Assembly: GCA_001464615.1 (NCBI GenBank) | Contig: LNFI01000010.1 | Location: forward strand, 38,867-102,866 | DNA from: Sphingomonadales bacterium Ga0077557 | GTDB taxonomy: Bacteria > Pseudomonadota > Alphaproteobacteria > Sphingomonadales > Sphingomonadaceae | DNA length: 64,000 nucleotides | Reading direction: 5' to 3' | Shown here: positions 48,092-51,558 of the stretch, in pieces | Layout of the letters: every line of letters begins with the position of its first letter | Position numbering within the stretch: position 1 is the first letter of the stretch | Position numbers and translations under genes: made by a program | The notes under the pieces: model-generated | The model's input: the letters and a program-made list of their open reading frames with translations, nothing else | Told to the model about the DNA's origin: nothing | Databases searched by the model: none

Positions 48092-48114
48092 TCGCGATAA
48101 GCCGACGAAAATAT

Positions 48115-48147
48115 GGGCCGTCCGGAGTCATCCGGGCGGCCCTTTTT
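48115..48147 (+). terminator. Rho-independent terminator of rpsF-rpsR-rplI
   Basis: GGGCCGTCCGGA-gtca-TCCGGGCGGCCC-TTTTT. Confidence 0.88.
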
Positions 48148-48241
48148 CATTTTCATCGCCAAACGAATGGCAATTACGTATTTGACAAACCCGGCTGTTT
48201 GGTTCAGTAACCAACCATAGTAATTAGTCGGGAGCCGGGTA

Positions 48242-48610
48242 ATGGCAGAGGGCGAAACTTCAGTCGAATTTGGATATGGCACTGTTCGATACAACAAGGC
48301 AATCGAAGCAATTCCTGCTACTAGCAAGACAACTGGCAACATTACGATCAATAATTCAGCGCAGCCAGGCTGCCCCGAGCACTTTCTCGTAACATTTATG
48401 CTAAGTTGCGGGCCGAATGACCGCGCAATGATGAGTCAGAATACTTTTCATTGGACCGAGATCGTAACCGGTATGACACGAAGTGCTCGATATTCCGAAG
48501 TCGAAGCAAAAGCCGCGCGACAACTAGCTCCAAGTCTTCGATCTGTTGCTGACGCGATCGAAAAGATGGTTGCTGAATTTGACGAGAAGGATCGTGGAAA
48601 CGAGGCATAG
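48242..48610 (+). CDS. Hypothetical IS passenger protein
   Basis: 122-aa ORF with GGGAG upstream, inside the IS. Confidence 0.55.
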   Translation: MAEGETSVEFGYGTVRYNKAIEAIPATSKTTGNITINNSAQPGCPEHFLVTFMLSCGPNDRAMMSQNTFHWTEIVTGMTRSARYSEVEAKAARQLAPSLRSVADAIEKMVAEFDEKDRGNEA

Positions 48611-48652
48611 ATAGGTCCTTCTATGGTGCGAATTGCCCGCGCTTTACCGCCA

Positions 48653-48808
48653 TCAGTCGGCTTGCGGCCTCTCCACGGGCTTATGCTTCACGATCTTGCG
48701 CAGCCGCTCGTCAAAGCGGACCTCGTCGTCATCGGTTTCAAGCTCGCGCGCGGCTTCCTTGAATTTGTCAAGCTGGGATGACGGCTTTGTAAGCTTTGGT
48801 TGGGTCAT
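48653..48808 (-). CDS. 51-aa acidic/basic small protein inside the IS (absent from ORF track)
   Basis: MTQPKLTKPSSQLDKFKEAARELETDDDEVRFDERLRKIVKHKPVERPQAD*; SD AGAGGGG. Confidence 0.65.
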   Translation of the reverse strand: MTQPKLTKPSSQLDKFKEAARELETDDDEVRFDERLRKIVKHKPVERPQAD

Positions 48809-50309
48809 TTTTTCCCCTCTTTACGACACTCTCAATTAGTCCAAATTCCACTAGCCGATTGATGTATTTGCTCGCCGTTGGCCACGACTTGGAGGTCAGA
48901 AGTGCGGCCGTTGTTACGTTAATCTGCGGACTTGATTGAAGGTAGGCTAGGATGGTTTTCTCATCTGTTGTCAACACGTCAGCGATGGCTGATGGAACTC
49001 GTTGGAGGCGGGTGTCGTTGCCGACCCGTCTAGACATGATGTCGTTCTCGAGCGTCACATGCACTTGATGAAAATGCGCTTCAATCTGTCGAAACCGAGG
49101 CTCAGGAAGCTTCGCGACTTGCATAGCGTGCCGCATTCGGCGCGTACCTTCAAAACCACAAAACGTGAGTTCCAGATGCATCATCGCTTCCATTAAGAAT
49201 GGATTGCGCGGATTATGAGCATCGTAAACAGTGGTAGCCGTCGTAGGCGGAATGAAGCCCCCCGGACTTTCAACAACGAGCTTATCATCGAATATTTTGA
49301 CGAAAATGTTCTGAGTTTTTAGATTGTACGAACGATGCGCAACTGCATTCACGATCGCCTCAAACCACGCCTCTTCAGGATACTCAGGCTGCAACTCTAT
49401 CCGTCCACTCTCACCAAAACGCTGAAAGTAACGTAATTGAGCGGCAATCAACGGCTTTGCGTCGAACAAAATACGTGATATATTACCATCGATATAAAAA
49501 CTAGCAACAGCGTTTAAATCAGAGCCAAACTGCTCGCTGGTACCTTCGTACCTAATAACTCGAATACGGGCACCGGGAAGGACGTCACGCGGGTCTTTGG
49601 CGAACATCAGGACGCATGCCAGGTTGGGATAAAATACGCCGCCAGATAGCCTTCCTAGCTTTGCTAATTCAAGTAATTCTTCTCTCGACTTGGTTGTCTG
49701 GTAACGCCGATTTATAAAAAAGCGCCGTACAAAGTCGTCCATCTGGGCCACGTCAAAGTCGCTTGGATAGGTCAGCGACGTGGCTTCTAACTCGTAGTGT
49801 ATCTCGCCTTTGGAGATGCGGAGCTCTCTCTTGAGGGCCTCTGACAACTCAATTTTGCGATCGCCTTCACGTATGAAGGCCTTTCCACCCGGGACTTCAA
49901 CAACCTTATCCGGCCGGTATTCCACTCGGAACGCCAATATGAAATCACGAGCACCTTTGGCGTTTACTACCTCAACGGGCTTTGAGGCCCACCGAGCATC
50001 GGGACACAGTGGTGTGAGGTTTTCAAGGGCGTTGATGCCTTTGCCGAGCGAGGCACAGCCGCTCAAGCTGCCATCGTCATCAATGCCAACAAGAATGAGC
50101 CCTCCATGCGGTTGCGTGTTTGACCACATGGAAAGGCACTCGCCGAGCGCCCGTGGTTGGACGCTCGAACTTTTACGCTCGACGCGTCGATCTTCCACGA
50201 ACAAGCCGATGTTTTCACCGGTGAGTCGGTCATAAATTTCGTTCGGGGTCCATAGCTGAATGAGGCTCTCGGACGCCGGTGGGAGATCAAACTCAAGCTG
50301 GTCAGTCAC
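48768..50309 (-). CDS. Schlafen/AlbA_2 domain + HATPase_c_4 + wHTH protein
   Basis: EDRRVERKS...WSNTQPHGGLILVGIDDDG; YPEEAWFEAIVNAVAHRSY...VESPGG...RNPFL; C-terminal HTH. Confidence 0.8.
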   Translation of the reverse strand: MTDQLEFDLPPASESLIQLWTPNEIYDRLTGENIGLFVEDRRVERKSSSVQPRALGECLSMWSNTQPHGGLILVGIDDDGSLSGCASLGKGINALENLTPLCPDARWASKPVEVVNAKGARDFILAFRVEYRPDKVVEVPGGKAFIREGDRKIELSEALKRELRISKGEIHYELEATSLTYPSDFDVAQMDDFVRRFFINRRYQTTKSREELLELAKLGRLSGGVFYPNLACVLMFAKDPRDVLPGARIRVIRYEGTSEQFGSDLNAVASFYIDGNISRILFDAKPLIAAQLRYFQRFGESGRIELQPEYPEEAWFEAIVNAVAHRSYNLKTQNIFVKIFDDKLVVESPGGFIPPTTATTVYDAHNPRNPFLMEAMMHLELTFCGFEGTRRMRHAMQVAKLPEPRFRQIEAHFHQVHVTLENDIMSRRVGNDTRLQRVPSAIADVLTTDEKTILAYLQSSPQINVTTAALLTSKSWPTASKYINRLVEFGLIESVVKRGKNDPTKAYKAVIPA

Positions 50310-50356
50310 AAGGAGGCACTTTCAAATTTGCTTTAGAGTTGCCTTTATAGTTAATT

Positions 50357-51319
50357 TTAGAGTGCCCGATTAGCTGACTTATAGCTCAGCCTCTTGCCCA
50401 CGATTCCTGTCAAAGCGATGTTAACTCGTGCTCGATCGTCGGCGCCGTTAACGACACGGTGGTTATAGCGAGACTCAAATTCTGCGAGATAACGGCGCAA
50501 ATGTTGCTCGCCGCAGCGCTGGTAAATGCCCTTCATGCCGCGCTTGAAAATCGAGAGATAGCCCTCGACAGTGTTCGTGTGGACCTGCGGCATATCGTAA
50601 TCGACATACTGACCGACGCTTTGATTCGTCGTGTCGTGCGCGGGGAAATGCGAAAGCACGCTGCGATAGATGTTGCTTTCATCGATCATCACCACAGCTT
50701 CGCGGGCAATGCTGGCGCGCAAGACCGGCATATTCTCGCGGGCAGTGGCGGTGTCGACCACCATCGTGCGAGCATAGCCCGTGTCGCGATCAATCAGCGC
50801 AAGAACCTTCATCTTGTGGTGAAACGCGCGCTTGACCGGCGCACCTTTCACGCGACCGATAAAAGTCTCGTCCACTTCCGCGATGCCACCACCCGAGCCG
50901 AACGGCGCGAGGTCACCAGAGCGCATAGCTTCGCGGATACGGCGCGACAGGAACCAAGCCGAGTTGTACTGGATTTCGAGGATGCGGCTTAGCTGGTGCG
51001 AGCTGATACCCTTCTTGCTCGACATCATCAGGTGCACGGCCTGGAGCATCAGGTGCAGCGGGAGCTTGGCGTCCTCGAATACGGTGCCGACCTTGACCGT
51101 GAACTGTTTGCGGCACTCGCCACACTTCTTGAGGCCGTGACGCAAAGCCCCTTCCGGGGACTTCTTGGACGGCTTACCGCGCACGCCCGCCAAATCGTAC
51201 ATGCGACGGTTCACAACGCCACAGTGAGGGCAGGCTTTGCCGTCCGCCCAAAAGATGCTTTCCAGGTACTCGAACGCCTTGGCTTCGTCGTGAAAGCGGG
51301 GCTGCGAAAGAACGGACAT
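50357..51319 (-). CDS. IS1595-family DDE transposase
   Basis: Zn ribbon CPHC..C..C; KKGISS; EVDETFIG; IDE...Y; HTNTVEG; GKRLSY. Confidence 0.95.
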   Translation of the reverse strand: MSVLSQPRFHDEAKAFEYLESIFWADGKACPHCGVVNRRMYDLAGVRGKPSKKSPEGALRHGLKKCGECRKQFTVKVGTVFEDAKLPLHLMLQAVHLMMSSKKGISSHQLSRILEIQYNSAWFLSRRIREAMRSGDLAPFGSGGGIAEVDETFIGRVKGAPVKRAFHHKMKVLALIDRDTGYARTMVVDTATARENMPVLRASIAREAVVMIDESNIYRSVLSHFPAHDTTNQSVGQYVDYDMPQVHTNTVEGYLSIFKRGMKGIYQRCGEQHLRRYLAEFESRYNHRVVNGADDRARVNIALTGIVGKRLSYKSANRAL

Positions 51320-51475
51320 AACGGCATTGCTCCTTGCCGTCTTTCCTACTCAATCACATTGGGTTTGTCAAATACGTAATCGTTAAACGAATACCAATCT
51401 CATCGCAGCGGATTTTTTCACCTACGCCATCCCCGCCAAACTTGGCTTGTGCGCCACAGCTGAAACGCAAAAAAA

Positions 51476-51503
51476 GAACCGCCCGGAGTGATCCGGACGG
51501 CCC
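51476..51503 (-). terminator. Hairpin/terminator, inverted near-copy of the rplI terminator
   Basis: Minus strand GGGCCGTCCGGA-tcac-TCCGGGCGG followed by TTCTTTTTTT. Confidence 0.7.
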
Positions 51504-51558
51504 TTCATTTTTGCGCCACTCGCTATCGGCCTAAATTTATCGACCGATTTTCCACGGA

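Follow-up and report, generated by a model that had tools for sequence, protein, structure and literature searches.

We have analysed a stretch of 64,000 nucleotides (nt) from contig LNFI01000010.1 of Sphingomonadales bacterium Ga0077557 (assembly GCA_001464615.1; this whole stretch is called the window below), in which an insertion sequence (IS) element of the IS1595 family carries a gene for a Schlafen-type protein. The element is 3,216 base pairs (bp) long (48169–51384) and contains four reading frames, all intact, for a transposase of 320 amino acids (aa) and for proteins of 513, 51 and 122 aa (Table 1). A perfect 20-bp inverted repeat pairs positions 48173–48192 with 51361–51380; the element ends extend 4 bases past this repeat on either side, and each of them abuts one copy of an 8-bp target-site duplication. 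For an 8/8 match at fixed positions beside the repeat ends, the chance is about 1 in 65,000. The repeats, the duplication and the enclosed transposase had been placed rightly in an earlier note made from this sequence, and the extent given there (48161–51392) has to be narrowed to that of the element proper. The G+C content is 0.61–0.67 in the flanks, 0.56–0.60 in the transposase gene and 0.47–0.53 in the cargo.

The transposase matches DDE_Tnp_IS1595 (PF12762, E = 1.8e-24) and Zn_ribbon_IS1595 (PF12760, E = 3.3e-09) as well as the NCBIfam model NF033547 (E = 1.8e-46, 158.7 bits against a cut-off of 75). Judged by their position, D150 (in EVDET), D213 (in IDE), E252 and K259 (E-GYLSIF-K), which are present on conserved columns of 68 relatives, should be the catalytic residues. 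They fit the DDE(6)K arrangement, which is the ISNwi1-type pattern of ISfinder. The IS1595 family reportedly includes transporter ISs (tIS), with an ISNwi1-type subgroup that is said to carry passengers. The element resembles this subgroup in the Zn ribbon followed by DDE_Tnp_IS1595, the DDE(6)K residues, the 8-bp duplication, the GGnnATTAy form of the ends in its family consensus, the length of 2–4 kb and the passengers. Thus, the transposase families, the duplication and the passenger genes inside the repeats all agree with the initial assignment to the IS1595 transporter ISs.

The largest passenger, co-oriented behind the transposase, combines a Schlafen domain, a GHKL ATPase domain and a winged helix-turn-helix (wHTH), as had been read from the letters; Pfam and fold agree on this. 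SLFN_AlbA_2 is matched with E = 5.9e-06 (27.3 bits, cut-off 25.3) and HATPase_c_4 with E = 8.1e-13 (48.6 bits), while the HTH_24 match (E = 0.0046) stays below the Pfam cut-off and further matches come from the CasR/Csa3 wHTH models of PADLOC. Since orthologs at 57–68% identity align from residue 1, the gene should start with the GTG at 50309. The public gene call P0001 (453 aa) starts at M61 and thereby drops the N-terminal 60 residues (50129–50309), which include the Ex4ExK motif, i.e., the Ex4(E/D)xK that is the catalytic motif of human and bacterial Schlafens (PMC13056530). The earlier note had considered that catalytic acidic residues might be missing; actually, E39, E44 and K46 are invariant in an alignment of 56 sequences, and a profile search aligns the motif with E-S-Q-S-I-E-F-K of pig SLFN11 (PDB 7fex, E = 8.1e-05). 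In the same alignment, the residues E317, N321, H325, R326, S327, Y328 and N329 of the N-box are invariant, and motifs and fold together predict a GHKL ATPase domain. For this box, a role as ATP switch is known from the work on RzAgo (bioRxiv 10.64898/2026.05.29.728809).

The AlphaFold model of the 513-aa protein has a predicted local distance difference test score (pLDDT) of 86.2. In Foldseek searches, its best match over the whole length is DIP2311 of Corynebacterium diphtheriae (PDB 3LMM, a structural-genomics entry; E = 1.5e-22, about 500 aligned columns), which has the same three-part architecture at 19% identity. The separate parts match the nuclease N-domains of SLFN14/11/5/13 (E about 1e-4, probability 1.0), the kinase ATPase domains of BCK, RetS and DesK, and a MarR-family wHTH (probability 1.0, ~88 residues). 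The SLFN-pAgo model of PADLOC (PDLC02394) is also matched, by residues 54–428 at positions 56–442 of 1121 (E = 9.4e-44). We have nevertheless rejected the identity with SLFN-pAgo, because there is no MID-PIWI core: the match is confined to the Schlafen-ATPase part, and the protein ends at residue 513 with the wHTH.

Between the transposase stop and the Schlafen start lies a spacer of 47 nt, which is filled by a 12-bp-phased motif array. Exact copies of TTTAGAGT occur only twice in the window, both in the array, while 0.2 would be expected. We have examined ten contexts of close Schlafen orthologs, of which five are on such elements and five are not. At all ten loci, at least two TTTAGAGT-like boxes stand 12 bp apart just before the start codon, with an inverted ACTCTAAA upstream. 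As the array is kept with the gene whether or not a transposase is nearby, it belongs to the cargo gene, and it is probably the operator for the protein's own winged helix. A scan for promoters and terminators inside the element gave nothing above shuffled sequence.

The Schlafen gene lies on an intact element at loci L102–L104, while at L105/106 and L134 the transposase has been split by another IS and the Schlafen gene is intact. Locus L113, also counted among those on such elements, is a short contig with the small backbone gene described below after the Schlafen gene. Off such elements, solitary chromosomal Schlafen genes are found at L100, L133 and L135, and the gene at L114 is frameshifted. 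At L136 (2091–4548), a 64%-identical ortholog with the same TTTAGAGT boxes directly follows the CI-like repressor gene (HTH_3 + Peptidase_S24) of a prophage with RecT and Sipho_Gp157 genes; defence genes carried by prophages typically lie in this position. At L110–L112, which belong to the contexts on such elements, the element ends are intact, and an A8 run that immediately follows the catalytic motif contains a frameshift. Overall, close Schlafen homologs are rare in Sphingomonadales (2 of 400 other sampled genomes, at 37–43% identity).

We have scanned one genome per species with the transposase and obtained 80 loci, nearly all from Sphingomonadales, at 62–80% identity. About 68 of them could be delimited by their own inverted repeats, 55 with perfect 8/8 duplications, and their lengths are 2.1–3.9 kb. 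The terminal consensus of the 55 elements at both ends, GGCGATTAyGTAnTTTACAAACCC (24 bp), presumably fits the ISNwi1-type ends 'GGnnATTAT' of ISfinder. The family has a fixed backbone, formed by the terminal repeats, the transposase and a helical protein of 45–55 aa, and two variable cargo slots: slot 1 between the transposase and the small gene, and slot 2 between the small gene and the far repeat.

In the window element, the backbone gene is the 51-aa frame, which shares its first 13 codons (an overlap of 41 nt) with the 3' end of the Schlafen gene. The nucleotide blocks common to this element and its nearest relatives are the repeat with the transposase gene (76–81% identity), the small-frame block and the far repeat; a 110-nt block within the small frame is 80–87% identical, i.e., above the transposase gene. 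The entropies of its three codon positions are 0.53/0.39/1.15, and since third positions thus vary most (2–3 times more than the others), the small frame should be a real coding gene. Its protein has a nearly invariant core, SQLDKFKEAARELETDDDE.RFDERLRKLVKHKPVE, and homologs in at least 598 protein clusters, all of them 'hypothetical' and in no Pfam family. The model (pLDDT 77.5) is a helix-loop-helix with a Lys/Pro tail. As the protein travels with the backbone and not with the cargo, our guess is that it most likely serves transposition or its control. Of the three passengers initially proposed, the 513-aa and 122-aa proteins are passengers indeed, whereas the 51-aa protein is not. A role as antitoxin or passenger has been rejected for it, as it is coding, lies in a conserved nucleotide block and accompanies the backbone whatever the cargo.

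A search for sister copies with different cargo, as the earlier note had proposed, yields about 70 elements, and their slots hold more than 100 unrelated protein clusters. Most of this cargo is of defence or toxin type. Representatives of the whole cargo are PIN, DUF433+HTH, SocA/Panacea, Fic, P63C, Bro-N, AAA_14+DUF4143, HARE-HTH, Abi_2 and NYN proteins, BstA (E = 9.1e-116), many DUF3800 proteins (the PADLOC candidate PDC-M04A), DUF5343 (PDC-M34A), and an N6/N4 methylase with a REase-like domain. In a maximum-likelihood tree of 71 transposases, those of L052, L061, L065, L066 and L070 are separated by branches of at most 0.04 and come with five different cargos, and the same cargo clusters recur in distant transposase clades. 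The Schlafen-bearing backbones of the window, L102 and L110 fall in three separate, well-supported places, which rules out that the Schlafen-bearing elements are one vertically diverging sub-lineage. Since the cargo does not follow the transposase tree, it must be exchanged between backbones faster than the transposase diverges, and the simplest mechanism would be homologous recombination between the conserved blocks.

Slot 2 of the window element is filled by the 122-aa protein, for which Pfam, NCBIfam and PADLOC give no match. Its family comprises 146 cluster representatives at E ≤ 0.001, all of ~115–130 aa and aligned over the full length. The gene is absent from every other Schlafen-bearing or sister element examined, while its relatives occur in other mobile-looking contexts, two of them in islands, one of these beside a Dam-type methylase. 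We have therefore rejected it as a partner of the Schlafen protein.

Table 1 Features of the IS1595 element and its surroundings (positions in the window unless a locus is named)
Feature	Position	Strand	Remark
Target-site duplication, left copy, AAACGAAT	48161..48168	.	Same 8-mer abuts the other end
Distal terminal inverted repeat, GGCAATTACGTATTTGACAAACCC	48169..48192	+	20-bp perfect pairing; inward-facing TTGACA inside
Slot-2 passenger, 122-aa protein	48242..48610	+	Reads inward from the distal end; passenger inside the repeats
Backbone gene, 51-aa protein, core SQLDKFKEAARELETDDDE.RFDERLRKIVKHKPVE	48653..48808	-	Homologs in essentially all ~68 delimited elements
Slot-1 passenger, 513-aa protein (Schlafen + GHKL ATPase + winged HTH), GTG start	48768..50309	-	Pfam, orthologs, AlphaFold, Foldseek, PADLOC
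GHKL ATPase N-box, E317-AIV-N321-AVAHRSYN (predicted)	49323..49361	-	Aligns to 3LMM
Catalytic motif codons, E39-D-R-R-V-E44-R-K46 (Ex4ExK)	50172..50195	-	56-sequence alignment
12-bp-phased array, TTTAGAGT / TTTATAGT / TTTAGAGT (read on the + strand)	50319..50363	.	Candidate operator or promoter
IS1595-family transposase, 320 aa, Zn ribbon + DDE	50357..51319	-	Pfam, NCBIfam
Transposase-proximal terminal inverted repeat, inward reading AACGATTACGTATTTGACAAACCC	51361..51384	-	Starts with AA
Target-site duplication, right copy, AAACGAAT	51385..51392	.	Directly abuts the element end
rplI terminator hairpin	48115..48142	+	18 nt from the insertion point
Sister elements at the gene transfer agent site, loci L037–L097	L064 5935–9265; L088 924–4068; L066 3126–6882		Outside the window

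Several observations concern the mobility of this copy. The outer 4 bases of the two ends are unequal, with GGCA at the distal end and AACG (read inward) at the transposase-proximal end, while the family consensus is GGCG. At the distal end, the GG terminus conforms and position 4 is A, where 52 of the 55 elements have G. The proximal end is the sole case of a terminal AA among the 55, the other 54 having G or C followed by G; at these two positions, G is found in 53–54 of the 55 elements. The terminal AA is also present in independent metagenome contigs that reach this end. Altogether, ten contigs from several metagenomes show the element at this site with 100% identity over up to 4,016 bp, so its sequence, including the odd terminal bases, is no assembly error. 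There is no second copy in the 3.57-Mb assembly, and no other insertion site is on record for exactly this element.

In addition, the transposase deviates at 10 of the 137 columns that are conserved at ≥95% in the 68 relatives (family median: 1), which bears out and quantifies the deviant residues noticed at first sight. The substitutions are H126R, V147A, N203S, T212I, H233Q, F255L, H268R, H275R, F283S and T312S; nine of these columns are otherwise invariant, and T212I adjoins D213. Its terminal branch in the tree is 0.61 long against a median of 0.13, i.e., about 5 times the usual length. The Schlafen protein, in contrast, deviates at 3 of 199 conserved columns only, close to the ortholog median of 2. 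From the single copy, the AA terminus and the decaying transposase beside a normally conserved Schlafen protein, we conclude that this copy has probably lost its mobility, while its cargo seems to be still under selection.

Based on the above analyses, our favoured explanation, to which we give a probability of about 0.6 as a whole, is that the element is an immobilised copy of a transporter IS with a Schlafen-ATPase-HTH gene as defence or conflict cargo. A defence or addiction role of the Schlafen cargo is plausible from its context. It is suggested by the presence of BstA, Abi_2, PIN, Fic and similar genes in the same slots of sister elements, and by one ortholog that sits beside a prophage repressor. 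By analogy with the characterised proteins RorSlfn5, EcoSlfn7 and RzAgo, the C-terminal winged helix would bind the TTTAGAGT array before its own gene and keep expression low, and might also keep the Schlafen protein parked; a Schlafen dimer would then cut tRNA and arrest translation, with abortive infection or growth arrest as the outcome. The element would have been inserted 18 nt behind the rplI terminator and have lost its mobility later, while the Schlafen gene, kept by selection, would have become a domesticated cargo gene. Schlafens with other partner domains are indeed phage-activated anti-phage tRNases (PMC13056530).

On the other hand, several points weigh against this explanation. 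Taboada et al. chose two systems from each of four architectures, including the HisKinase fusions, and tested seven; protection against the phage panel was seen with the DUF262 and Ig-like fusions only (PMC13056530). In addition, about 30% of the bacterial Schlafens lie away from defence genes and may function otherwise (PMC13056530). PADLOC has no stand-alone model for the 513-aa protein, and no known defence gene stands beside the element, the neighbours being ribosomal protein genes and a monooxygenase gene. The binding of the array by the wHTH is deduced from conservation, and the ten metagenome copies, being identical, are uninformative on selection. As for the loss of mobility, the transposase retains every DDE(6)K residue, neither the duplication nor the inner 20 bp of the repeats has a mismatch, and a terminus with AA may be tolerated.

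These last points speak for a rival reading, in which the element is a recent and still mobile insertion, as the earlier note had supposed from the intact duplication. All four DDE(6)K residues and all frames are intact, and the nearest species-level relative does not have the element at this site. We consider this doubtful, since the element is found as a single genomic copy and, in contigs from several metagenomes, always at the same site with the same sequence, and since it has a terminus unique among 55 elements and ten substitutions at positions invariant in 65–68 relatives, one of them beside D213, on a branch about five times the median. As to the function of the cargo, the 513-aa protein might be an ordinary DNA-binding regulator (the old COG2865 'predicted transcriptional regulator') that hitch-hikes on the element with no role in defence or conflict. 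Its wHTH and the conserved array at its own promoter would suit a regulator, some orthologs are alone between housekeeping genes, and the results of Taboada et al. on HisKinase fusions and on the Schlafens outside defence neighbourhoods (PMC13056530) point in the same direction. A pure repressor, however, has no need for Ex4ExK and ATPase residues that are invariant in 56 relatives; in sister elements, defence or toxin genes occupy this slot; and the gene has a patchy, horizontally moved distribution, a low G+C content and one ortholog in a prophage moron position. We hence regard a plain regulator as unlikely.

The cargo could also be an addiction module of toxin-antitoxin kind by which the element or its replicon is stabilised, with the Schlafen RNase as toxin and the 51-aa or the 122-aa protein as antidote. 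The 41-nt overlap suggests translational coupling between the small frame and the Schlafen gene, sister elements carry parts of toxin-antitoxin systems (PIN with DUF433-HTH, SocA/Panacea, Fic), and related elements are found on plasmids. However, the 51-aa gene goes with every cargo, including non-toxins such as the methylase, and so is no cargo-specific antidote; no other Schlafen locus has the 122-aa gene; and in five contexts the Schlafen orthologs are alone. An addiction module is therefore quite unlikely, and a type II toxin-antitoxin pair in the strict sense has been rejected, because a dedicated, co-inherited antidote is lacking. Finally, the Schlafen-ATPase-HTH protein might serve the transposon itself, e.g., by assisting transposition or the exchange of cargo as a nuclease or a DNA-binding factor, given that its gene is co-oriented with the transposase and tightly packed behind it, that its wHTH may bind DNA, and that it recurs on such elements. 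The distribution of the gene brings this idea close to refutation: only 1 of the ~70 elements fetched with the transposase has a Schlafen gene, namely that of the window, the other Schlafen-bearing elements having been found with the Schlafen protein as query, and half of the close orthologs are off any IS. The motif is not in the terminal repeats either, and every Schlafen fold studied so far has proved to be an RNase (PMC13056530; bioRxiv 10.64898/2026.05.29.728809). A helper role in transposition is thus most improbable, and immobilised transporter IS with defence or conflict cargo stays the explanation that we prefer.

Neither the type of element nor the class of protein is new, and the window copy adds a member to each. 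Compared with the ISNwi1-type tIS, the present lineage differs in its extra 45–55-aa backbone gene, which splits the cargo into two slots, and in its cargo, which is mostly of defence or toxin type and is exchanged; the window copy differs further in its AA terminus and decaying transposase. Our literature searches (ISNwi1; IS1595 with passenger or defence cargo; gene transfer agent with transposase) have found no description of this lineage, and neither the small backbone gene nor the exchanged defence cargo was found described there. The small backbone protein, the two slots, the defence-type cargo and its exchange are family features that are worth describing.

The protein itself shares with the pSlfn-HisKinase-HTH composition the order of a Schlafen domain with Ex4(E/D)xK, a GHKL ATPase and a C-terminal HTH; this composition is the second most frequent, with 19.2% of 5,930 pSlfns (PMC13056530). 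The defending Schlafens RorSlfn5 and EcoSlfn7 have Ig-like or DUF262 partners instead of the GHKL-HTH found here, and transposon carriage of Schlafens is not mentioned by Taboada et al. (PMC13056530). The SLFN + GHKL ATPase unit ('Schlatpase' supradomain) is also common to the SLFN-pAgo RzAgo, in which ATP binding leads to tetramerisation and to the active tRNase (bioRxiv 10.64898/2026.05.29.728809). Kuzmenko et al. have counted 60,692 Schlatpases, most of them small with a C-terminal HTH (bioRxiv 10.64898/2026.05.29.728809). Unlike RzAgo, the 513-aa protein is without Argonaute MID/PIWI parts, which excludes guide-dependent sensing, and its only extra domain is the wHTH with its cognate-looking DNA array. 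The Schlafen + GHKL ATPase + HTH class amounts to tens of thousands of genes. The presence of one of them as interchangeable cargo of a small transposon, in a slot that holds BstA, Abi, PIN, Fic and similar genes in sister elements, is good circumstantial evidence that it is a gene of conflict or defence, and the gene with its 45-bp motif array makes a compact, directly testable unit.

In integrons and in Tn7-like transposons with defence cargo, a conserved mobility backbone is likewise combined with hypervariable cargo, and some lineages use one fixed site. The analogy is only functional, since the present elements have no integrase, show no attC-like sites that we could recognise and hold one or two genes per slot. 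More tentatively, and with the odds rather against it, one may regard this lineage as a miniature platform, undescribed so far, for cassettes with immune and toxin systems of one gene each, in which the backbone blocks would act as recombination arms that re-load the two slots without transposition, whole clades would have fixed landing sites, among them the -10 region of a gene transfer agent promoter, and the window copy would be an immobilised end state, its Schlatpase-HTH gene having turned into a domesticated, self-regulated and DNA-tethered tRNase defence. The sister family shows that single-gene immune systems are shuttled and reshuffled by very small IS-type elements as well as by large transposons and islands, which bears on the spread of defence genes and on the annotation of 'hypothetical' genes inside IS elements.

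As to the genomic site, the rpsF-rpsR-rplI operon lies on one side of the element, and on the other side are a convergent gene for a small membrane protein and a monooxygenase gene. In G011, the closest species-level relative (88% identity in the flank), the element is missing, and the site has rplI, a single bidirectional terminator and the convergent gene. This relative also lacks a spacer of ~100 nt between two hairpins, so it shows the absence of the element rather than a clean empty site. The hairpins in question flank the element in the window: one related to the rplI terminator lies on the other strand at 51473–51506, the two (48108–48147 and 51469–51510) are 81% identical, and they would be ~100 nt apart if the element were removed. 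Several sister elements from the window's own clade (L024, L030) also sit in A/T runs beside terminator-like hairpins, and terminator-proximal sites may be preferred. No tRNA genes were found at the insertion sites of the elements.

The direct repeat around the insertion continues past the 8 bp at 80% identity (ATCGCC-AAACGAAT-GGCAAT at 48155–48174 against ATCGTT-AAACGAAT-ACCAAT at 51379–51398). As this repeat extends outward, the left flank ends in ATCGCC, the sequence with which the element's own repeat ends outward in the consensus; either chance or a preferred insertion into end-like targets could account for this. Elements L039 and L040 are likewise inserted into TTTGTCAAC-like sequence.

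Some individual relatives deserve a remark. The frameshift of the Schlafen gene at L110 (3571–3760) is identical in L111 and L112, i.e., in three metagenomes, and the element has perfect consensus ends. Such a frameshift may mark a pseudogene, stem from a sequencing error in the homopolymer, or be a slipped-strand switch that turns a toxic nuclease on and off. In a genome of the same genus (G021; L014 3153–3524 and L015 1–446), a sister element with consensus GGCG ends and the duplication CATTTTTC is distributed over the ends of two contigs. The small backbone gene is there, slot 2 has a different frame (69 aa), and the content of slot 1 fell into the gap of the assembly. A related element with transposase and small gene is carried by the Rhodobacterales plasmid NZ_CP087043.1 (L132 3435–5297). 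In its slot 1, only the first ~30 Schlafen codons (MEEQLNFPFDEP..ELWTPREIW) are found, preceded by two long palindromes. This is a cargo-deletion remnant, and it shows that the lineage extends beyond Sphingomonadales.

A well-supported clade of 37 transposases (from Sphingopyxis, Erythrobacter, Novosphingobium and others) has nearly all of its elements at one site. We have found no description of such insertions at the promoter of a gene transfer agent (GTA) in the searched literature. The elements directly follow a conserved promoter-like motif, ATAACC-N5-GGTTAT ... TTGACATCGTCACGCTG, also seen as ATAACCnnnnnGGTTAT..TTGACATCGTCACGCTG. At a distance of 60–250 nt, they are followed by an RcGTA-like cluster with its g1-like, large-terminase and portal genes, and their transposase end points to the motif. 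Their 8-bp duplications are perfect within each genome and different between genomes, and the cargo differs per genome as well. Among other genomes of the order, at least 12 have the site uninterrupted, while about 8 matches end right at the junction. As the duplications differ between genomes and empty sites exist, the elements should have been inserted repeatedly and site-specifically, and this clade looks as if it homes to the -10 region of the GTA promoter.

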